Shown: positions 4,106-47,476 of the stretch, one piece after another
Position numbering within the stretch: position 1 is the stretch's first letter
Layout of the letters: the number at the start of each line of letters is the position of its first letter
Assembly: GCA_044450965.1 (NCBI GenBank)
Contig: JBIOJO010000011.1
Location: 13,091-77,090 of the forward strand
Reading direction: 5' to 3'
Source: Elusimicrobiota bacterium
GTDB taxonomy: Bacteria > Elusimicrobiota > Elusimicrobia > UBA1565 > UBA9628
DNA: 64,000 nucleotides
The notes under the pieces: model-generated
Databases searched by the model: none
What the model was told of the DNA's origin: nothing
The model's input: only the letters and a program-made list of their open reading frames with translations
Made by a program: the position numbers and the translations under genes

Positions 4106-4560
4106 TTCTTGTTCCTCGCGGCGCAAATGACCGAGTCCACGATGTGCTGGTAGCCGGTGCAGCGGCACAGGTTCCCGGAGAGGGCGGTGCGGATGGACGC
4201 GTCGTCGGCCTTGCCGCCGGACTTGAGATGGGCGTGGGCGCTCATCAGCATGCCCGGGGTGCAGATGCCGCACTGGGCGCCGGCGCACTCCATGAAGCCC
4301 TTCTGCAGCTTCGAGAGCTTTTCGGGCGTGCCCAGGGACTCCACGGTCTCGATCTTGCGGCCGTCGACCTGGCACACGGGGATCAGGCAGGAATTGACGG
4401 GCTTGCCGTCGAGCAGGACGGTGCAGGCGCCGCATTCGCCCTCGCCGCAGCCTTCCTTGGTTCCGGTGAGGCGGAACTCCTCGCGCAGGACGTCGATCAG
4501 GCGCGTGAACGGGGCGCCGCTAAACGTTTTCTTCTTGCCGTTGACGGTCAAAGTGGTCAT
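4102..4560 (-). CDS. (2Fe-2S)-binding small subunit of a Mo-hydroxylase (xanthine dehydrogenase/CoxS family)
   Basis: 152 aa with two Cys clusters (CGEGECGACTV and CGICTPG...CRCTGY). ATGA overlap with the large subunit stop at 4557-4560. The long N-terminal extension of the track ORF is rejected. Confidence 0.9.
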   Translation of the reverse strand: MTTLTVNGKKKTFSGAPFTRLIDVLREEFRLTGTKEGCGEGECGACTVLLDGKPVNSCLIPVCQVDGRKIETVESLGTPEKLSKLQKGFMECAGAQCGICTPGMLMSAHAHLKSGGKADDASIRTALSGNLCRCTGYQHIVDSVICAARNKK

Positions 4561-6776
4561 TTCAGGGCCTGGGCGATTCGTTCCGGCGTGACGGGGAGTT
4601 CGGTGATGAGGCGTCCGGTGGCGTGCTTGACGGCCGCGGCCACGGCGGGTCCGGGCACGTCCATGGGCAGTTCGCCCACGCCTTTCGCGCCGAACGGTCC
4701 GCGCGAGTAGGGCTGCTCCACCAAGGTGACGTCGAACGGCGGCGTGTCCAGGCTGGTGGGGATGACGTAGTTCGTGAGCTGGGAGTTGATCATCACTCCG
4801 TCCTTGTAAACCGGCTCCTCCAGAAGGGCCCAGCCGAGGCCCTGGGTGGAGCCGCCGATGATCTGCCCTTCCGCGAACAGGGGATGGATGGCCTTGCCGA
4901 TGTCCTGGGCGGTGGTGATCTTCACGACGCGGACCTCGTAGGTGGACTTGTCGATCTCCAGGTCGGCGGCGAAGGCGGCGTACGAGTAGACGCCGTAGGC
5001 GTCTCCTTGATAAGTCTTGTCGTCCCAGGTGACTTCCGGCGGCTTTTCGTACTGGACCTCGAAGCGGCGGGCGGGGTTGGCGCCGCACAAGACGGCGGCG
5101 GCTTTCTTCAGCTCCGCGGCGGTGCGGGGAACGCGGCCGTGCTCGGCTTGGAACGCCGCTTTCATCTCGGCGGCGGCGCGCTGGACCAGGCCGCCCACGA
5201 CCATGCAGGTGCGCGAGGCGACGGTGGGGCCTGAGTCCGGGACCTTGTGGGTGTCCGGGGTCTCCACCTGAAACCAGTCGATGGGCATGCCCAGCGCGTC
5301 GGCGGCGACCTGGGAGAACATGGTGTTGGTGCCTTGGCCGATCTCCGTGGAGGCGGCCAGGACGAACAAGCCGCCGTCCTTGGTGAGGGCGACGCCGGCG
5401 CGGCTGGCCAAATAAACCTCGCCCGAACCGGTGAAGCCGGCGCCGTGGTGGGCGACGGCCAGGCCGATGCCCTTCCAGGTCGAGTTCTTCGAATTCTTGT
5501 TCCAGCGGTCGTACTCTTTGCGCTTGGCGGCGTACTTGGAGCGCTTGACGACGATGTCCAGGCATTCCGCGGCGCCCACGGACTCGCGCAGATGCTGGCC
5601 GGTGGCGGTGATCGTGCCCAGCTTGAACAGGTTCTTCCGCTTCAGCTTCAGCGAGTCGATGCCGAGGGCGTCGGAGATCTTTTCCCAGTGCAGTTCGGCG
5701 GCGAACAGGGACTGCGGGGCGCCGAAGCCGCGGAAGGCGCCGTTGGGGGGCGTGTTGGTGGCGATCACCTTGGAGCGGACGCGGACGTTGGGGCACTCGT
5801 AGGCGCCGGCGGCGTGAAGGGTGCCGCGCGAAAGCACCACGGACGACAGGGTCGCGTACGCGCCGCCGTCCATCAGCAGCTCGATGTCCTGGGCGACCAT
5901 GGTTCCGTCCTTCATCATTCCCGTCTTGTGGCGGGCCACGGCGGGATGGCGCTTGGTGGTGGCGGCCATGTCCTCGTGGCGGTCGTAAACGATCTTGACG
6001 GGATGTCCGCACTTGAGCGCCAGCAGGGCGGCGTGGCCGGCGATCATGGACGGATACTCTTCCTTTCCGCCGAAGCCGCCGCCGGTGACGGTCTGGATGA
6101 CGCGGACCTTGGTCTCGTCGCGGTCCAGCATGACTTTGAGAGCCTTGACCACGTAGTAAGGGCACTGCAGGGAGCCGGTCACCACCATGACGCCGTCTTC
6201 TTCCCAGGCGGCGACGGCGTTGTTCTCGATGTACGCCTGTTCCTGGGCGGGGGTGCGGTACTCGCCTTCCACCACGAAGTCGGCTTTGGCGAAGCCGGCG
6301 GCCACGTCGCCCTTCTGGATCATGTACGACTTGAAGACGTTGTCTTCTTTATAAATCTTCGCCTTCAGCGCGAGGCCTTCTTCCAGGGTCAGCGCGGCGG
6401 GCAGCTTCTCGTACTCGATGGTCACGCGCTTGGCCGCCTCGTAGGCGGTCGCGCGGTCGGGGTGGGCGATCAGGACGATGGCTTCTTCGCGGTGTCTCAC
6501 CAGCCCGTCGGCCAACAGCGGTTGGTCCGGCTCGATGAGCGTGACGACGTTCTTGCCGGGGATATCCTTGGCGGTGACGATGGCGCACTCGCCCCAGGCG
6601 AACGCGGGATCGAATTTAACGGCCTTGATCCGGCCGTGCGGCACCGACGAACGCACGGTGACGCCATGCCAGCAGCCGGGGAATTGATGGTCGTCCAGGT
6701 AAAGCGCGCGCCCCGTCAGCTTTTCCGGACCCTCGCGGCGCGGCATGCTTTTCCCGACGTTCGCCATGCCGGGCAT
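4557..6776 (-). CDS. Molybdopterin-binding large subunit of a xanthine dehydrogenase family oxidoreductase
   Basis: 739 aa. GxGGGFGGK motif and aldehyde-oxidase/xanthine-dehydrogenase a/b hammerhead and MoCo-binding-like regions. First gene of the L-S-FAD-unknown operon. Start could also be 6767. Confidence 0.9.
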   Translation of the reverse strand: MPGMANVGKSMPRREGPEKLTGRALYLDDHQFPGCWHGVTVRSSVPHGRIKAVKFDPAFAWGECAIVTAKDIPGKNVVTLIEPDQPLLADGLVRHREEAIVLIAHPDRATAYEAAKRVTIEYEKLPAALTLEEGLALKAKIYKEDNVFKSYMIQKGDVAAGFAKADFVVEGEYRTPAQEQAYIENNAVAAWEEDGVMVVTGSLQCPYYVVKALKVMLDRDETKVRVIQTVTGGGFGGKEEYPSMIAGHAALLALKCGHPVKIVYDRHEDMAATTKRHPAVARHKTGMMKDGTMVAQDIELLMDGGAYATLSSVVLSRGTLHAAGAYECPNVRVRSKVIATNTPPNGAFRGFGAPQSLFAAELHWEKISDALGIDSLKLKRKNLFKLGTITATGQHLRESVGAAECLDIVVKRSKYAAKRKEYDRWNKNSKNSTWKGIGLAVAHHGAGFTGSGEVYLASRAGVALTKDGGLFVLAASTEIGQGTNTMFSQVAADALGMPIDWFQVETPDTHKVPDSGPTVASRTCMVVGGLVQRAAAEMKAAFQAEHGRVPRTAAELKKAAAVLCGANPARRFEVQYEKPPEVTWDDKTYQGDAYGVYSYAAFAADLEIDKSTYEVRVVKITTAQDIGKAIHPLFAEGQIIGGSTQGLGWALLEEPVYKDGVMINSQLTNYVIPTSLDTPPFDVTLVEQPYSRGPFGAKGVGELPMDVPGPAVAAAVKHATGRLITELPVTPERIAQALK

Positions 6777-41681: not shown

Positions 41682-43349
41682 CTAGCGACGGCGCAGCAAT
41701 GCTTCGATGCCCGGCGTGGGAGCCAGATCGAACGCGGACTGCCCTTTGGCGTTGACCGCGTTCAGGTCGGCTCCGTGATCGATGAGGAGCTTGATCATGC
41801 CGGCATGTCCATCAACCGCAGCATACATGAGCGGCGTCGTGCCCACGAGGTAGAACGTTTTACCGCTCGTAACCGTCCAGTGATCATCTACGTACGTATT
41901 CGGGACGGGTTCGTTGACGTTGACCCCGGCCTTGATGAGCGCCGTCGCCGTCTCGAAGTTGTCGGCCCAGATCGCCGCGCGCAAGTCTTCAACGCCAAAA
42001 TGAAGGCCGTGCTGCGGCCCATTCTCAAGTATTCGTTTAGCAAGGGCCTGGTTTCCGGACCGGAGCGCGTGTTGCAGGGCCTGCCGGTCGCCCCAGAGGA
42101 GCTGCTCGATGGTTTGGTGTTCAGGGCCGGTCAACGCAACGCCCTTCAGCGGGCGAGGTGTCAGCGTGGGAGAGGGAGGATGGCTCAGCAGCTCCAAGAT
42201 TTCGCCGCGCGCCTTGTCGTGACTCTTGTCATCGCCCCAAGAGTACGAGCCGCCGGCGATGATGAGGTTGCTCAGACGTCTGTTACGAGCCCAATCCGCG
42301 GCAGTGTGATCGTCGTAATCCTTCAGGGAGGCATCGGCGCCCGCCTCGAGGAGGAGCTGGGCGGTCGCGACATCTCCGCGCGCCGCAGTTATCATGAGCG
42401 GCGTCAGCGCCCCGTGATAGGCGTAGTGCGAGTCTTCCCGTTTGTCGGAGAGCTTGCGCGTGCCCGGGCCGCGCGTATTGACGTCGGCGCCGTTCTCGAT
42501 GAGCAGCTTGACGATCTCCGTCCGGCCGAGGTCGATGGCCTTCAGCAGCGCGTTATTCATCGTTGATTTGTCGGCCGCGACGCCGTACTTGAGCATCGCG
42601 CTCACGCACGCCACAATGTCCCGACCTATCGCGTCGTCCAGAAGCCTGACGCGGTCTTGATCAAGAAGGATGGACGTCACGTCCTCCGTTTCCGTGATCT
42701 TCTGCGCCAGTTCTCGCGTGGATGCGCGTCCGGAGTTCAGTTCCAATTTGATTGAAGCGACGGTCTGGGCCAGTTCGCCGTGAGCGAGGTTGTCGGAGGC
42801 TGGAGCTCTGTTGATTCTCTGCTCGAGAGCGTTCAGGCGCTGCATCAGGGCCTTGATATCCTCCGTGGCCCCGGCCAACCCGACCTCCACCTTCTCGACT
42901 CGCCGGGTCAGGCTGTCGGCCAGAGCCTGCTTGAAGGCGGCGTCGGATTGGACGAACTTGAGGACGCGCTCTTTCTCGATGCGGACCATGGCGTAGCTCA
43001 TGCCGTTGCAGTTCTTGTACTCGAAATCGTCCTGTTCCCAGCCGGCGAGCAGGGAGCTCTGGGGCAAGACGTTCCCGATGCCTTCAGCGACCCGAGCTCT
43101 GTCGCGGCCCGGGCCGGCGATGCGCTTGATCTGCTCCAGATTCCAGAGCTGCGCATCTCCGGTCACTTGTTGGCTCAGGCTTCGCAGGGCTGCTTCGCGA
43201 GCCTCCTGGGCGTCGGCGGCCTTTCCGGCGCCGTAATACCAATCTCGGTCGCGAGGCAGGGAAGTGTAAAAGACGGGAGGAGTGCAGTCCTTCGAATACG
43301 CGGAGGGAGCGGCCGCCGACAGAAGGCTCACGGCGAGAATCAGACGCAT
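41682..43349 (-). CDS. Secreted ankyrin-repeat protein with N-terminal coiled-coil region
   Basis: Start trimmed to MRLILAVSLLSAAAPSAYS (signal peptide). Multiple ANK repeats (TPLMxAAxxGxxxxVxLLLxxGAD). Confidence 0.8.
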   Translation of the reverse strand: MRLILAVSLLSAAAPSAYSKDCTPPVFYTSLPRDRDWYYGAGKAADAQEAREAALRSLSQQVTGDAQLWNLEQIKRIAGPGRDRARVAEGIGNVLPQSSLLAGWEQDDFEYKNCNGMSYAMVRIEKERVLKFVQSDAAFKQALADSLTRRVEKVEVGLAGATEDIKALMQRLNALEQRINRAPASDNLAHGELAQTVASIKLELNSGRASTRELAQKITETEDVTSILLDQDRVRLLDDAIGRDIVACVSAMLKYGVAADKSTMNNALLKAIDLGRTEIVKLLIENGADVNTRGPGTRKLSDKREDSHYAYHGALTPLMITAARGDVATAQLLLEAGADASLKDYDDHTAADWARNRRLSNLIIAGGSYSWGDDKSHDKARGEILELLSHPPSPTLTPRPLKGVALTGPEHQTIEQLLWGDRQALQHALRSGNQALAKRILENGPQHGLHFGVEDLRAAIWADNFETATALIKAGVNVNEPVPNTYVDDHWTVTSGKTFYLVGTTPLMYAAVDGHAGMIKLLIDHGADLNAVNAKGQSAFDLAPTPGIEALLRRR

Positions 43350-43414
43350 CCGAATGATTGTACTAAATGAAAAATCAGAGGGGCCCTGCCGCCGGTGCGC
43401 GCCGTCCTGTGTGG

Positions 43415-43807
43415 TCAGCCGTGACTTTTCAAGACGGGATAAAGCTCCAAATCCCGTCGGCAGTTGGTGCAGACCTCGGCGATCGGCCATTGCGCCGGCC
43501 GCGGCTTCAAGACATTGGGTTTCTTGCAGCCGGGGCAAGGGACCGAACCGGACACGATGAGTCCTCGGACCGCGGCCGTCTTCGCCGAGAAATAAATCCC
43601 CAGGCACAAGAAAAGCGGCACCAAGACGAAATGGATCAGCGGCAATAAGACGCAGAAGAGGGCGATGCCCCAGAAAATCCCCAGCTTCGGCAGCATGTTC
43701 CGGAGCCGTTCCGAAGTCCGGAGCAGGCGAATCTGGGCGGCGCCGGAAGCCGGGAGCAACCCAAAGACTTTGGCTTCGACTCCGACTTCCGCGATCTCAG
43801 AGCGCAT
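43415..43807 (-). CDS. Small membrane protein with C-terminal Cys4 zinc-ribbon
   Basis: Two hydrophobic helices followed by CPGC...CTNC. Start uncertain. Confidence 0.4.
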   Translation of the reverse strand: MRSEIAEVGVEAKVFGLLPASGAAQIRLLRTSERLRNMLPKLGIFWGIALFCVLLPLIHFVLVPLFLCLGIYFSAKTAAVRGLIVSGSVPCPGCKKPNVLKPRPAQWPIAEVCTNCRRDLELYPVLKSHG

Positions 43808-43965
43808 ACTGGTTTCCCCTTGGCATTCGGCGCGATCGTGCGAGGCCGCGCGGCTTCTTTCGCGTGACAACGCAACGAAAGGGCCTCGCCTTTTATGCGG
43901 GAGAGTGGACGAAACGTTGCAGTAAGTTTGGTATGAAATCGCGTTCCAGCTCATTCGTTGGGTCT

Positions 43966-43990
43966 AATTCGGAACTTAAAGTCCGAATAT
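43966..43990 (+). promoter_or_regulatory. Imperfect inverted repeat ATTCGG-N10-CCGAAT directly upstream of the Rrf2 regulator start; candidate operator
   Basis: Palindromic halves visible 6-30 nt upstream of the ATG at 43996. Confidence 0.3.
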
Positions 43991-43995
43991 TGAGC

Positions 43996-44904
43996 ATGGC
44001 CGCTCCAGTTCGTCACGCGCTGCAGGCCTTGGCGGAAATGGGCGCCCGGCCGGACAGCGTTCGCCGCGTCGGGGAGCTCGCCCGCCGCCTGGGACTTCCC
44101 GAAGCGGGCCTTTCCAAGATCTTCCAGCGTCTGGCGCGCCGAGGTCTTCTCGACTCGCGGCGCGGTCCCAACGGCGGCTACCGGCTGACACGCGCCCCGC
44201 GCGCGGTGAGCCTCGCCGCCGTCGTCGATGCGGTCGATGAGTCGAGCCGCAGCCGGGGCCGCTGCCTTCTCCGGGATCGTGCCTGCGACGAAGGCAATCC
44301 CTGCGTCATGCATCACGCCGCCGCCTCCGCGGAGGCGCGCCTGCGGCGCACGCTCGAGTCTCTGACCCTCGCCGACCTCGCCTCGGGACTGCGCCTGCTC
44401 GCTCTGACCGCGCTCTTGCCTCTCGTCGCCGCCGCGGCGCCGGCGCCCAAGGGTCCGCCGGAATTCCCCGAGGATCTCGGGCCCGCGATGATCGATGTCT
44501 CGGGCTATCCACCGGAGCAGCAGCGCGTCTATCGAGAGTTGTTCCTGCCCATTTACAAAGAGCAGCGCGGAGGCGCGGCGCGGGCGATCAATTCGCCCCT
44601 CGTCGAGATCGACGCCGCGGGCGAGAGAGTCGAGCGTCGCGCGCATCCCGACATCGCGGCCGATCCGATGCTCGTCGTCTACACACGCGGCGGCTGGCGC
44701 GCCGAGGTCTTGAGGATGAAAAATCGGCCGCCGTGCTGCGGCGCCTGTCCGATCCTCACGCGTTCGGATGCCGAGGCGCTGCGGCGCTTCTTCGCATATG
44801 ATTCCATACGACGGAAGACCGGCACCGCCGCCGAGACGTGGGCCGCCCGGCGGCGAGAGCTGATCCGCCGTTTCGCCGAGATCCAAAAGGAGAAGAAGCC
44901 ATGA
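43996..44904 (+). CDS. Rrf2-family (NsrR/IscR-like) Fe-S transcriptional regulator with unusual ~160-aa C-terminal extension
   Basis: Winged-helix N-domain; ligand spacing C-x6-C-x5-C-x2-HH. Then a hydrophobic segment LRLLALTALLPLVAAAAP and a domain with a CCGAC motif. Stop overlaps the nirK start (ATGA at 44901-44904). Confidence 0.7.
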   Translation: MAAPVRHALQALAEMGARPDSVRRVGELARRLGLPEAGLSKIFQRLARRGLLDSRRGPNGGYRLTRAPRAVSLAAVVDAVDESSRSRGRCLLRDRACDEGNPCVMHHAAASAEARLRRTLESLTLADLASGLRLLALTALLPLVAAAAPAPKGPPEFPEDLGPAMIDVSGYPPEQQRVYRELFLPIYKEQRGGAARAINSPLVEIDAAGERVERRAHPDIAADPMLVVYTRGGWRAEVLRMKNRPPCCGACPILTRSDAEALRRFFAYDSIRRKTGTAAETWAARRRELIRRFAEIQKEKKP

Positions 44905-45890
44905 ACATGCGCATCGCCGCCGCCATCCTGCTGCTCTCGGCGCCGTTCGCCGCGGCGGAAACCGCGGAGAAGGCCGTTTTGACCACGGCGCCGAACGTGC
45001 CGCCGCCGATCACTCGCCGGACGCCGGCCGTCGTCGCGGTCGAGCTGGAAGCCAAGGAAGTCGTGGGCAACCTGATGGAGAGCATCGGCGAGCCGACTCA
45101 GTACTCCTTCTGGACCTTCAACGGGACCGTTCCCGGCCCGTTCATCCGCGTGCGCGAGGGCGATACCCTGGAGTTGACGCTGAAGAATTCCATGAAGAGC
45201 TCCATGAAGCACAGCATCGACCTGCACGCGGTCACGGGTCCCGGCGGCGGCGCGGCGATCACGCTGACCGATCCCGGGGCGACCACGAAGTCGCGCTTCA
45301 AGATGCTCGCCGCCGGCCTGTACGTCTACCATTGCGCCGCGCCGCCCGTCTCGGACCACATCGCCAACGGCATGTACGGGATGATCCTCGTCGAGCCGAA
45401 GGACGGCCTGCCGAAGGTCGACCGCGAGTTCTACGTTCTGCAGAGCGAGTTCTACACGAAGCAGGAGCTCGGCTACGAGGGGCTCGCGACGTACGATCCG
45501 ATCGCGGCCTCGTCGGAGACGCCGACGTACATCGTCTTCAACGGCAAGCACGGGTCGCTGATGGAGGACGGCGCGCTGCAGGCGAAAGTGGGGGACAAGG
45601 TCCGGATATTCTTCGGCAACGCCGGGCCCAACAAGATGTCCTCGTTCCACGTGATCGGGACGATCTTCGACAGCGTCTATCCCAATGGAAGCCTCGGTTC
45701 GCTTCCGGAGCACGGCGTCCAGACGATCGGCGTGCCGCCCGGCGACGCGGCCATCGTCGAACTGCGGTTGAAGGTTCCGGGCAACTACACGCTCGTCGAT
45801 CATGCGATCTTCCGGCTGGAGAAGGGCGCGGTCGGCGTCCTTCACGCCGAAGGCCCCGAAGCGCCCGAGATCTACGGCACGGTGAAGTGA
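44901..45890 (+). CDS. nirK: Copper-containing nitrite reductase
   Basis: Signal peptide; HSIDLHAVTG and YVYHCA cupredoxin copper-ligand motifs; ~330 aa. Confidence 0.9.
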   Translation: MNMRIAAAILLLSAPFAAAETAEKAVLTTAPNVPPPITRRTPAVVAVELEAKEVVGNLMESIGEPTQYSFWTFNGTVPGPFIRVREGDTLELTLKNSMKSSMKHSIDLHAVTGPGGGAAITLTDPGATTKSRFKMLAAGLYVYHCAAPPVSDHIANGMYGMILVEPKDGLPKVDREFYVLQSEFYTKQELGYEGLATYDPIAASSETPTYIVFNGKHGSLMEDGALQAKVGDKVRIFFGNAGPNKMSSFHVIGTIFDSVYPNGSLGSLPEHGVQTIGVPPGDAAIVELRLKVPGNYTLVDHAIFRLEKGAVGVLHAEGPEAPEIYGTVK

Positions 45891-45911
45891 GCCGTCGCGA
45901 GGGAGACCGCC

Positions 45912-46121
45912 ATGGTAAACGATGAAGGTCCGACGTTGGAATTGAGCGTCACCGAGACGATCGAGCGCTGGCCCGCCACGCGCGCCGTGCTGGTCGCCCG
46001 CGGACTCGACCTGTGCTGCGGCGGAGTCCATCCCGTCGGGATGGCGGCGGGAGCGCACGGCGTGGATCCCGAGGCCTTGCTTATCGAACTTCGCGCGGCC
46101 GCGGCCGGCGGGACGCGATGA
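45912..46121 (+). CDS. DUF1858-like small redox protein
   Basis: 69 aa with a CC motif in a helix-hairpin. ATGA-coupled to the downstream membrane protein gene. Confidence 0.55.
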   Translation: MVNDEGPTLELSVTETIERWPATRAVLVARGLDLCCGGVHPVGMAAGAHGVDPEALLIELRAAAAGGTR

Positions 46122-47476
46122 GCGGCGAGGCGGTCAAGCCGGCGCCGTTTCGCGGCAGCGGACCGTTCCTGCGCATCGCCCCGCCGCTGTGGCTCCCGCT
46201 GCGCCATTTCGCGCTGGCCGCCGTCGCCTTCGTCGTCTTCGCGGCCGCGGTCGCCTGGCGCGGCGGGAATCTCGTCGGTTTCGACATCGACGCGCGGTTC
46301 GCGCTGGGGCTGGTGCACGTCCTGACGCTCGGCTGGATCGCGCAGACCATCCTGGGGGCGTGTTGCCAGATGATGCCGACCCACGGCGAGGTCCCGCTCG
46401 CCTTTCCCCGCGCCGCCGCGGCCGGCTGGTGGCTGTTCGTCTTCGGGGTCCTCGCCTACGTGGGCGCGCTTTGGAGCGGCGTCGAGCGCTATTGGATACC
46501 GGCGCTCGCCGTCGCCGGCGGCGTCGCGATCGAACTCTTCGTCCTGGCCGTGACGCACGCGCGCGCGCGGAAGCGCGACACGACGTGGCTGCATTTCGCC
46601 GCGGCGCTCTTCTGGCTCGGCGCGCTCGCGACGGCGGGCGCGCTGATGGCTTACGACCGGCACCGCGGGCTCGTCTTTCGCGATCCGGAGGGCGGGCTGA
46701 TCGCGCACGTGCACATGGCGCTGATCGGCTTCGCCGCGACGACGATCTACGGCGCGGGTCACCGGCTGATCCCCTGGATCGCCTTGTGCCAGATCCGCAC
46801 GCGCTGGGAAGGACGGGCCAGCTTCGCGCTGACCCAGATCGGTCTCGCGGGTCTGGCGATCGACTCCCTGTTCCTGGGCCGGCGTCTGATGCCGCTGTGG
46901 GCGTGCCTGATCGCCGCGGGCTTTCTTCTGTACGCGCTGCAGCTGCGGCCCATCCTGACCGGCGGGGCGACGCTCGATCCTTCCCTGGCGTTGACGCTGC
47001 TGTCCTTCGCCGGCGGCGCGTTGTGGGCCGCGATCGGACTGGGCCTCGCGTTCGACGCCTTCGCCGACAGCACGCCCGCGCGGGGCGCCTACGTCTGGGC
47101 GGCGCTGGTCGGCTGCATCACGCCGATCATCTTGGCGCAGGTCCACAAGATCGCGCCTTTCCTGGTTTGGCTGCACGTCTACAGCCCTCGCCAATGGACG
47201 CCGCCGGTCAAGGTTCCCAAGATCGACGATCTGACCAGTCGCGGCCTCGCCTGGATGGAGTTCTTCACGCTGGCCGCCGCCGTGCCGCTCGGGACGGCTG
47301 GCTTGTGGCTCGAACGCGGCGGACTCGTGCGCGCGGCTGGAGGGTGCCTGCTCGCGACCGCCGCGTGCTACGCCTGGAACCTCGGGAGCGCGCTCCGCCA
47401 CGTCGTGCGTCCCGACGGCCATTGGGACCTGCCCGACGGCGCCCTCGAGATTGACGCGGCGTTTACGGTTGATTGA
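46118..47476 (+). CDS. Polytopic membrane protein, putative NnrS-family (NO-response heme-copper membrane protein)
   Basis: ~12 TM helices with conserved His residues. Located in a nirK operon, where NnrS is typical. Assignment is from context plus topology only. Confidence 0.5.
   Translation: MSGEAVKPAPFRGSGPFLRIAPPLWLPLRHFALAAVAFVVFAAAVAWRGGNLVGFDIDARFALGLVHVLTLGWIAQTILGACCQMMPTHGEVPLAFPRAAAAGWWLFVFGVLAYVGALWSGVERYWIPALAVAGGVAIELFVLAVTHARARKRDTTWLHFAAALFWLGALATAGALMAYDRHRGLVFRDPEGGLIAHVHMALIGFAATTIYGAGHRLIPWIALCQIRTRWEGRASFALTQIGLAGLAIDSLFLGRRLMPLWACLIAAGFLLYALQLRPILTGGATLDPSLALTLLSFAGGALWAAIGLGLAFDAFADSTPARGAYVWAALVGCITPIILAQVHKIAPFLVWLHVYSPRQWTPPVKVPKIDDLTSRGLAWMEFFTLAAAVPLGTAGLWLERGGLVRAAGGCLLATAACYAWNLGSALRHVVRPDGHWDLPDGALEIDAAFTVD

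Follow-up and report, generated by a model that had tools for sequence, protein, structure and literature searches.

A putative Rrf2-type iron-sulfur regulator fused in frame to a predicted haem-less, cytochrome-c-derived domain at the head of a nirK operon in uncultured Elusimicrobiota

A fused gene in front of nirK

The window analysed in this work is a stretch of 64,000 nucleotides (64 kb) from an Elusimicrobiota bacterium (GenBank assembly GCA_044450965.1, contig JBIOJO010000011.1, positions 13,091 to 77,090), and our interest is in a predicted operon of four genes within it. The first gene encodes a regulator of the Rrf2 family that continues into an additional C-terminal domain, designated here domain X, and it is followed by nirK, coding for a copper nitrite reductase, by the gene of a small ScdA_N protein and by that of a polytopic membrane protein. 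The first gene is a single unbroken open reading frame (ORF) on the + strand (43864..44904), which yields a protein of 302 aa from the ATG at 43996 or of 323 aa from an in-frame ATG upstream at 43933. The NCBI gene call uses the former, and the corresponding protein P0001 (P and L numbers denote the proteins and loci recovered in our searches), whose name is 'RrF2 family transcriptional regulator', is 100% identical to the window protein and belongs to an Elusimicrobiota metagenome-assembled genome (MAG). An earlier reading of this DNA, made from the sequence only, had noted that the protein extends beyond the normal Rrf2 length, and this was correct: about 170 residues follow, including a hydrophobic stretch (LRLLALTALLPLVAAAAP) and the motif PPCCGACP. 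The sequence-only reading had offered two explanations, a novel membrane-tethered regulator or an artefact in which a missing stop codon or a frameshift joins two genes.

In a homology search of 5.8 billion proteins, after which the contigs of the matches were fetched, the matches comprised five fused clusters of full length (76-100% identity) and some 20 standalone proteins, 167-191 aa long, which cover the C-terminal half only and each begin with a classical signal peptide. The fused frame is open in six sequence-distinct lineages of 76-93% identity (the window, L014, L015, L001/L002, L012/L013 and L016), and their sources are an NCBI MAG, a Logan run and two ENA assemblies, that is, at least four assemblies. 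The L016 contig is cut within the Rrf2 part, with no interruption of the frame up to the first base. For the five complete fused genes, the ratio of nonsynonymous to synonymous divergence (dN/dS, Nei-Gojobori method) was 0.10-0.33 for the Rrf2 part, 0.21-0.53 for the hydrophobic segment and 0.13-0.25 for domain X, with a synonymous divergence (dS) of up to about 0.9. Because both halves present low dN/dS values at such a divergence, the frame must have been kept open for a long time with both halves under constraint. These comparisons show, at the level of sequence, that the ORF is a true gene fusion maintained by selection; the lineages known to carry it so far belong to one clade of uncultured Elusimicrobiota. 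A scan of metagenomes for further loci gave one locus only. Protein P0006, which had been considered as a standalone long form, was discarded; its contig merely ends within the Rrf2 gene, with the frame open to base 1.

Concerning the start of the fused gene, the comparison of loci suggests that ATG 43933 is more likely than ATG 43996 to be the true one. The N-terminal extension that it adds is in frame and free of stop codons at 9/9 Rrf2 loci, with a length of 21 to about 29 codons. The 323-aa start is the one used by the gene callers in P0002 and P0004, an upstream start is also found in the standalone homologues, and a start codon at the position of 43996 is absent from two loci (L005 and the second Rrf2 gene of L001). 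The dN/dS of the extension was 0.26-1.3, and constraint at the protein level is therefore weak there.

Table 1. Features of the fused gene, its upstream region and the nirK operon (positions in the window).
Feature	Position	Strand	Basis
Sigma54-type -24/-12-like element TGGACGAAACGTTGCA, GG-N10-GC	43906..43921	+	Consensus TGGCAgAAnCGTTGCg at 9/9 Rrf2 loci
N-terminal extension of the Rrf2 protein, 21 codons; or 5' leader if the start is ATG 43996	43933..43995	+	Locus comparison
Inverted repeat ATTCGGA-N8-TCCGAAT, candidate Rrf2 operator	43967..43988	.	Perfect 7-nt arms 43967-43973 and 43982-43988
Rrf2 winged-helix and dimerisation domain, aa 1-130 (302-aa numbering), ending ...LTLADLAS	43996..44385	+	PF02082, TIGR00738
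Predicted Fe-S ligand loop C90-X6-C97-X5-C103-X2-H106	44263..44313	+	Alignment to IscR C92/C98/C104/H107
Fusion junction and signal-peptide core: GLR-LLALTALLPLVAAAA, AxA site, probable cut between AAA and AP	44386..44439	+	Orthology to standalone X signal peptides
Domain X, haem-less, cytochrome-c-derived, predicted periplasmic (coordinates include the stop codon)	44440..44904	+	Homologues, profile comparison
Lost CxxCH position, now Y-K-E-Q-R-G-G (YKEQRGG)	44554..44574	+	Opposite C-x-x-C-H-T of haem-bearing relatives (alignment, hhalign)
Invariant CCGAC (C247, C248, C251) in PPCCGACP	44734..44748	+	Invariant in 26/26 close homologues
nirK, two-domain copper nitrite reductase, Sec-type signal peptide	44901..45890	+	TIGR02376; ATGA overlap with the stop of the fusion gene
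69-aa ScdA_N/DUF542 protein, N-terminal domain type of RIC/YtfE, CCGG motif	45912..46121	+	PF04405, 34.3 bits versus 32.5
452-aa polytopic membrane protein, putative divergent haem-copper oxidase subunit I relative	46118..47476	+	Homologues; ATGA overlap with gene 3

The Rrf2 half

The Rrf2 half scored 97.2 bits against PF02082 (cut-off 30) over aa 5-129 and 91.2 bits against TIGR00738 (cut-off 73.3), which places it in the Rrf2 family. It aligns to residues 7-132 of Escherichia coli IscR, and the match to IscR structures had an E-value of 5e-10. The three cysteines and the histidine that had been pointed out as cluster ligands from the sequence only are in place when aligned with those of IscR, and they are invariant in the fused and the standalone members of the subfamily (C111, C118, C124 and H127 in the 323-aa numbering). 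The subfamily's invariant residues of the DNA-binding domain are also kept in the fused proteins. Judged by these alignments, the Rrf2 half is an IscR-type (Cys3His) Fe-S transcription factor; the ligand residues that define the Fe-S subgroup (three cysteines behind the DNA-binding domain, spaced about C-X5-7-C-X5-C, with or without a fourth ligand) are present and the cluster itself is predicted. The narrower label 'NsrR-like' given previously has to be dropped, the NsrR equivalog NF008240 reaching 30.7 bits against a cut-off of 182. The IscR equivalog, with a score above that of NsrR, also stayed below its cut-off (58 bits versus 207), and so did RirA (45 versus 193).

A search with the Rrf2 half only gave no standalone Rrf2 protein above 62% identity to the fused type. 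This negative result is no more than indicative, because the word-indexed search missed P0001-P0005, which are 76-100% identical to the query. Locus L001 was found to contain, at 4469-4867 (+) between a hemerythrin gene and a Fer4 gene, an uncalled second Rrf2 gene of the standalone type; the gene call at this place is a 60-aa ORF on the opposite strand. Its product is 79% identical to the Rrf2 protein of L009 and 53% identical to the fused Rrf2. The fused Rrf2 is therefore a paralogue, and the two Rrf2 paralogues of L001 each have their own dyad and -24/-12 element, of the kinds described below for the window.

Origin of the fusion

In related loci the two halves are found apart. A separate Rrf2 gene (150-190 aa) whose stop codon overlaps the start of the X gene by ATGA is present in L005/L006/L018, in L009-L011 and in L025, and X occurs without an Rrf2 neighbour in L003, L007, L008 and several more distant loci. 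On comparison, these arrangements show an ancestral state in which a separate Rrf2 gene overlapped, by ATGA, a separate gene for X as a predicted Sec-type secreted protein of about 170 aa. The sequence-only reading had held that orthologs with a stop codon after the Rrf2 domain and a separate gene for a secreted protein would indicate an artefact; such orthologs exist (L005, L009 and L025), but the conclusion drawn in advance was not borne out. Of its two explanations the artefact falls, and what stands is an evolutionary fusion of two coupled genes, in which the hydrophobic segment would be a retained signal peptide and insertion into the membrane would come with it.

The junction can be followed residue by residue. 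Standalone Rrf2 proteins end 7-13 mostly basic residues after LTLADLA. In the fused protein LTLADLA-SG continues directly as LRLLALTALLPLVAAAAPAPKG, and the C-terminal part of about 170 residues begins with GLRLLALTALLPLVAAAAPAP. Lost in the fusion were the basic Rrf2 tail, the stop codon and the Met and n-region of the X signal peptide; kept were the hydrophobic core and the AxA cleavage motif, and the fused segment is near-identical to the signal peptide with which the closest standalone X proteins begin, such as MDARLRLIALATLLPLSAAAAPA. Neighbour-joining trees of X plus NirK place the fused loci and the L009 type in one clade with 100% bootstrap. Monophyly of the fused loci without L009 received 34% bootstrap, and the fusion may have arisen once or more than once. 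The association with nirK is general, X being directly upstream of nirK in 18/18 distinct loci, and the named source records of these loci are all from Elusimicrobia, except for one labelled 'uncultured bacterium'.

Domain X and its family

The C-terminal part of about 170 residues matched no Pfam or NCBIfam model even at E<10, and neither X nor its family profile matched any Pfam family or PDB sequence. A hidden Markov model of X was searched against 1.84 billion cluster representatives and found 224 proteins at E<=1e-3, mostly of 150-210 aa. Motifs were counted in 148 listed representatives of this family. The CxxCH motif is present in 125/148, of which 12 have CCxxC as well, 13 have CCxxC only, and 10, mostly fragments, have neither. 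The close homologues of the window protein all belong to one type (26/26 without CxxCH and with CCxxC). The window protein itself lacks CxxCH, the motif by which c-type cytochromes are defined, and its CCxxC is the invariant CCGAC listed in Table 1, which could be a Cu(I) site or a redox disulfide.

In the CxxCH branch the C-x-x-C-H is invariant and the Met in KRM is near-invariant, whereas this Met is not conserved in the window protein and its 26 close homologues. Among the 51 members of the CxxCH branch, 13 match Cytochrome_CBB3 (best 6.8e-7) and 5 match Cytochrom_C; other matches were to C1, c551 and Dehyd-heme_bind. The scores against Cytochrome_CBB3 and Cytochrom_C in the family ranged from below the threshold up to it. 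An alignment of the haem-less to the haem-bearing branch with hhalign had a probability of 100% and an E-value of 2.9e-48 over 140 columns, which establishes the homology to cytochrome c. The AlphaFold2 (AF2) model of X, with a predicted local distance difference test score (pLDDT) of 87, is mostly alpha-helical, and a Foldseek search of the PDB with this model found nothing significant, the top match being the c-type cytochrome SorU (E 2.9). Protein P0033, which has both CxxCH and CCxxC, is encoded in the X position upstream of nirK and its gene overlaps nirK. From these comparisons, domain X is a haem-less descendant of a NirK-associated family of monohaem cytochromes c that lacks a Pfam annotation; its description as an unknown 'CCGAC domain' was abandoned on the strength of the hhalign result.

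Other arrangements were observed in the family. P0031 is a COX1-like membrane protein fused to a haem-less X, P0047 has an N-terminal stretch that is cupredoxin-like by eye (no Pfam match) followed by CarboxypepD_reg and a haem-bearing X, P0056 joins an N-terminal domain of no known kind to a haem-bearing X, and P0063, P0068 and P0090 are tandem di-domain forms. P0031 was considered as a Rosetta-stone link to the fourth gene of the operon and set aside, as BLASTP of its COX1-like part against gene 4 found nothing.

Upstream elements and regulation

The same order of elements precedes all nine Rrf2 genes, fused or not: a -24/-12-like element, an ATG or GTG, and a dyad. Besides the window, the -24/-12-like element was located in L001 (~5975-6003 and ~4372-4400) and L009 (~4487-4515), with equivalents in L005, L012, L014, L015 and L025, and at 9/9 Rrf2 loci an in-frame ATG or GTG (in the window the ATG at 43933) stands 12-13 nt behind it. 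Measured against the sigma54 consensus TGGCAC-N5-TTGCW, the GTTGC of the -12 box is conserved in 9/9, the -24 box of the window is the weakest of all (TGGACG), and the element is one of three loose matches in the 64-kb window. This arrangement suggests sigma54-dependent, leaderless or near-leaderless expression of the Rrf2 subfamily, with a translated N-terminal extension. The -24/-12-like element was also considered as a palindromic operator and rejected, being palindromic in L025 only.

The dyad has a core CGGA-N8-TCCG with AT-rich flanks and is present once before every Rrf2 gene in the nine loci. It falls in two codon registers across the loci and is therefore conserved as DNA, not as protein. 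In the 233 kb of loci, the AT-flanked form is confined to the sites upstream of Rrf2 genes, plus one similar site in L025. An imperfect palindrome just upstream of the gene had already been reported from the sequence only; it exists, with 7-nt arms and an 8-nt spacer, but it lies inside the ORF if the start is 43933. Known Rrf2 operators are 23-29 bp long, with 11-3-11 repeats or with a 7-bp centre without base contacts (PMC5015018, PMC9338935), and the 22-bp span of the dyad is in line with these sizes. An RNA hairpin was rejected as an explanation of the inverted repeat, only the 4-bp core CGGA/TCCG being common to the loci, which is too short for a stem. The simplest reading is that the operon would be autorepressed by holo-Rrf2 and that damage to the cluster by nitric oxide (NO) or oxidants would relieve this repression, on top of sigma54-type activation.

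The loci with X and no Rrf2 gene have a different conserved upstream block, ATACATGCGCTGGGACATATTT (L003 ~5935-5960, L007 ~4940-4965, L008 ~385-410). In L007 and L008 a -10-like TACAAT or TACACT is found just 5-7 nt before the start codon. This spacing, together with the block, hints at leaderless transcripts and a different regulator.

nirK and the downstream genes

The nirK product scored 332.9 bits against TIGR02376 (cut-off 296.3) and contains the Cu-oxidase_3 and Cu-oxidase_2 domains, in agreement with the assignment made from the sequence only. The statement that all four genes are linked by ATGA overlaps applies to two of the three junctions (44901 and 46118). At the third, between nirK and gene 3, nirK ends at 45890 and the next start is at 45912, leaving a gap of 21 nt with a GGGAGA Shine-Dalgarno sequence.

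Two annotations downstream had to be changed. Gene 3, previously described as DUF1858, reached 17.6 bits against PF08984 (cut-off 32.2) and passes PF04405 instead, and this ScdA_N gene is conserved in the related loci. For gene 4, the label 'NnrS-like' is contradicted by the lack of any match to PF05940 at E<10 and by its absence from the homologues, of which 0/75 carry PF05940. Gene 4 itself has no Pfam or NCBIfam match, even at E<10. The named ones among its 75 homologues (P0176-P0250) are all from Elusimicrobia, many of the homologues are annotated with PF00115 (COX1), and one, with 30% identity, is named cbb3 subunit 1. The family profile matched structures of cbb3 CcoN with an E-value of 4e-7, limited to aa 33-123, and H67, H197 and H199 are invariant in the family. 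Gene 4 and its relatives could be divergent members of the haem-copper oxidase (HCO) superfamily, possibly NO-reducing. The family measures about 440 aa and is always found within the nirK operon; a second paralogue is present in L008 (4200-5465, opposite strand). Groundwater Elusimicrobia have been found to carry nirK and qNOR (10.1101/765248).

In some loci additional genes were observed. A gene for a CopD/DUF4149-like membrane protein follows nirK in L005 (8820-9293) and in the fused locus L012 (6874-7353). A TusA/DUF2249 gene is located between the ScdA_N and HCO-like genes in L001 and L009-L011, and is absent from the window.

Upstream of the operon, a mechanical ORF of 179 aa (43415-43954, -) shares sequence with the promoter region and the beginning of the fusion gene. 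A real small membrane protein appears plausible only for the C-terminal part of about 90 aa, from MLPKLGIFWG..., with two hydrophobic stretches and then a zinc-ribbon-like CPGC...CTNC. The true gene probably has a much shorter length and diverges from the nirK operon. Further away, 41682-43607 (-) encodes a protein of 641 aa with several ankyrin repeats (Ank_2, E 1e-23), which are found less often in bacteria than in eukaryotes, and with a weak LPP20 lipoprotein-like match (E 0.026). By eye, a stretch close to the N-terminus of this protein resembles a signal peptide.

The hydrophobic segment and the fate of the fused protein

The segment between the two halves has an apolar core of 14-15 residues that matches the standalone signal peptides in its length and in its central Pro, and small residues are present at -1 and -3 (AxA) in 6/6 fused lineages. 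Its Hessa-type insertion energy (dG), summed over 19 residues, is +1 to +4 kcal/mol. Charges on its two sides (3 Arg versus 1 Asp and 1 Glu before the segment, 1 Lys versus 4 Asp/Glu after it) are consistent with an N-in/C-out orientation following the positive-inside rule. The class of transmembrane transcriptional regulators (TTR) is defined by a DNA-binding domain plus a membrane span. Here the DNA-binding domain is present, and the place of the span is taken by the signal-peptide core with its Pro, its AxA and its positive dG. On this evidence, we regard the segment as a retained signal peptide of the cleavable type and not as an evolved anchor.

Internal starts for X were looked for and rejected. 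Between the cluster loop and the signal-peptide core there is no ATG, GTG or TTG in the window and in L012; the sole later candidate is a TTG inside the core of the window, and a start there would remove most of the signal peptide. Across the six fused lineages no internal ATG, GTG or TTG is conserved, and the fusion would therefore be the only source of X. This domain is conserved and cysteine-rich, and both its ancestry and its partner are periplasmic; therefore the segment must, as it appears, still drive export, which would leave Rrf2 on the cytoplasmic side of the membrane. Flanking charges of +1 on the N side and -2 on the C side were likewise counted as a sign of a retained export signal. 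That the regulator becomes inserted into the membrane would follow logically from the fusion.

We favour, with a confidence somewhat short of even, a model in which the fusion is a membrane-inserted pre-protein that is exported and cut by signal peptidase and that heads an autoregulated nirK operon. In this model, the internal signal peptide would emerge behind a cytoplasmic Rrf2 domain of about 150 aa and target the nascent chain to Sec, and insertion N-in/C-out would export X to the periplasm, where NirK works. Signal peptidase I would most likely cut after the conserved AxA and free X, and the signal-peptide core would then keep the Rrf2 dimer at the membrane until the core itself is extracted or degraded. 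Seen in this way, the fusion would take the translational coupling of the ancestral genes to its extreme, as a 1:1 polyprotein. The Rrf2 part would bind the 7-8-7 dyad, about 35-55 nt downstream of the sigma54-type promoter at the head of its own operon, and the four genes (fusion gene, nirK, ScdA_N gene and HCO-like gene) would be repressed until NO or redox damage reaches the Fe-S cluster. X would probably use its three cysteines in the service of NirK, either carrying Cu(I) or acting as a thiol-redox partner, and would not be a haem electron donor. Cleavage was ranked first because the segment is unchanged with respect to cleavable signal peptides and its dG is positive, and the CopD-like genes that follow nirK in L005 and L012 were counted in favour as a copper theme.

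Several points weigh against this model. We infer membrane insertion, cleavage, DNA binding and NO sensing alike. Being short and having an unfavourable summed insertion energy, the hydrophobic core would make a poor stable anchor, which leaves in doubt what becomes of the Rrf2 part after export. Only about 3 residues separate the last Rrf2 helix from the membrane segment, and it is questionable whether the dimer could then reach DNA. Retention of AxA may reflect the inertia of a young fusion (dS <1) rather than selection for cleavage. The model names no cofactor for CCxxC and no route for the reduction of NirK without a haem partner. Finally, the sigma54 reading comes from the motif only, with a degenerate -24 box in the window, and no gene for a GAFTGA activator and no rpoN were found within the 64 kb.

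Perhaps the fused protein is instead left whole. This explanation, which we ranked second and consider possible but doubtful, is that of an uncleaved bitopic sensor-regulator like ToxR or CadC, with a cytoplasmic Rrf2 domain, one transmembrane (TM) helix and a periplasmic X; X would report copper, redox state, nitrite or NirK occupancy via dimerisation or DNA binding. A winged helix-turn-helix (wHTH), a single hydrophobic segment and a periplasmic domain make up the layout of known transmembrane one-component regulators (PMC10269533), which are common. The census published there lists 128 Rrf2-domain proteins with a predicted TM segment among 50,302, a rare class, and the Rrf2 examples inspected have a normal length of 152-156 aa, without an extra domain. 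An intact protein would agree with the conservation of both halves, with the AF2 model, in which residues 125-146 form one continuous helix, and with the effect of the preceding hydrophobic LADLAxGL, which lowers dG in the fused proteins to +1 to +2.8, against +4.4 to +5.8 in the closest standalone signal peptides. However, an AxA and a short Pro-containing core are typical of cleavable signal peptides and have stayed unchanged in the six lineages, no linker separates the Rrf2 fold from the membrane segment, and relatives have X alone or the two as separate genes, so that the halves need no physical link to function. An elaboration of this idea, in which the intact fusion would be a sensor of two compartments, with cytoplasmic NO or redox state read by the Fe-S Rrf2 part and periplasmic copper, redox state or NirK occupancy read by X, and the nirK operon would be tuned by both together, appears unlikely to us.

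A different possibility is internal initiation, by which an Rrf2 protein with a non-functional tail would be made alongside a separate X from a non-canonical or unrecognised start. L014 and L015 do have a TTG at the 'LTLADL' codon with GGAG before it, and the ATG of the C-x-M-H motif is common to all fused genes and was used by the gene caller on L016. Yet this TTG is CTG in the window, L001 and L012, there is no ATG, GTG or TTG in L012 from the MH codon to the mature domain, a start at the MH methionine would give an n-region of 45 aa, and read-through of the full frame would persist, as there is no stop. We consider this explanation improbable. Hardly better placed, and in our estimate a shade behind it, is a wholly cytoplasmic two-domain regulator in which the hydrophobic stretch would be a buried linker helix and the cysteine-rich domain a metal or redox sensor. 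A CCxxC could bind a metal or a cluster in the cytoplasm, and the positive summed insertion energy speaks for this reading as well; against it, the orthology of the segment with the N-terminal signal peptides of some 20 secreted standalone homologues can be followed at every residue, the partner NirK is periplasmic with its own signal peptide, the charges obey the positive-inside rule, and X descends from a periplasmic cytochrome c.

An assembly or sequencing artefact or a decaying pseudogene, to which one might be led by close relatives with separate genes or no Rrf2, is essentially refuted by the same in-frame junction in six sequences that diverge from one another and stem from no fewer than four independent assemblies, by dN/dS well below 1 in both halves, by the conservation of ligands, DNA-binding residues and operator, and by the junction itself, a point error being insufficient to derive it from an ancestor with an ATGA overlap because about 10 codons of the Rrf2 tail and the start of X are missing.

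Significance

If the proposed model is true, a membrane-inserted Fe-S regulator would provide a test of the extent to which sensors of this kind can operate at the membrane. Sister lineages with the genes separate, fused or lacking the regulator present a gene fusion caught 'in the act', and the locus allows one to ask what happens when a cytoplasmic protein precedes a signal peptide: cleavage, tethering or release. The X family, with its 224 representative clusters, is a NirK-linked lineage of cytochrome c of which one branch lost its haem and kept CCxxC, and it bears on the metallation or reduction of NirK in Elusimicrobiota. Should the protein rather act as an intact sensor, a c-type cytochrome would have been converted into a thiol or Cu(I) protein. 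The annotation of the neighbouring genes has also been corrected. No major paradigm is changed by these findings, which concern a lineage-restricted variant known from metagenomes only. We found no description of the fusion architecture or of the X family.

Comparison with known systems

The Rrf2 half resembles IscR, NsrR and RsrR in its fold, in its Cys3His ligands and in having a 22-bp dyad as a candidate operator at its own gene. It differs from them by an N-terminal extension of about 21 aa that holds this candidate operator and by a C-terminal signal peptide with a domain predicted to be exported. In Nitrosomonas NsrR stands in front of nirK, as the Rrf2 part of the fusion does here. The candidate half-site, TTCGGA, does not match that of the Streptomyces coelicolor hmpA1 operator, the published site with which it was compared. 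No experimentally characterised Rrf2 regulator (IscR, NsrR, RirA, CymR, RsrR, HypR, SifR) is known to be membrane-bound. NsrR regulons are treated in PMC1274295.

Through the homology of its family, domain X is related to the class I monohaem c550/c551 cytochromes that donate electrons to NirK, as well as to NorC-like membrane-anchored cytochrome c subunits, and its gene adjoins nirK; unlike these cytochromes it has no CxxCH, its Met is not conserved, and it has an invariant PPCCGACP instead. In some respects X recalls the CCxC-type Cu(I) chaperone Cox17, which acts in the intermembrane space: both are small proteins outside the cytoplasm with adjacent cysteines and a third one, and both genes accompany a copper enzyme in need of metallation. 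There is no relation to Cox17 in sequence or fold, the motif is CCxxC and not CCxC, and the binding of copper is what we infer for X.

As a whole, the fused protein resembles ToxR, CadC and the TTR class (PMC10269533) in its predicted layout of an N-terminal cytoplasmic wHTH, a single hydrophobic span and a periplasmic C-terminal domain, and it would act like them from the membrane on a locus of exported and membrane proteins. Unlike members of this class, its DNA-binding domain is a predicted Fe-S Rrf2 domain and not OmpR/PhoB-like, it has no juxtamembrane linker, its span would be a recently captured signal peptide of the cleavable type, and its periplasmic part is a separate protein in sister lineages.

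The nearest precedent for the proposed model, as a bacterial polyprotein with a cut at an internal signal peptide, is FbcH of Bradyrhizobium japonicum, a cytochrome b-c1 precursor reported by Thony-Meyer et al. in PNAS in 1991. FbcH differs in its N-terminal part, reported to be a polytopic membrane protein of the same complex, whereas in the fusion this part would be a soluble DNA-binding regulator, and the cleavage is here a prediction. In both cases, however, one gene would give rise to two proteins, an internal signal would export a C-terminal part of the cytochrome c type and be cut by signal peptidase, and the two parts would be synthesised in a ratio of 1:1.

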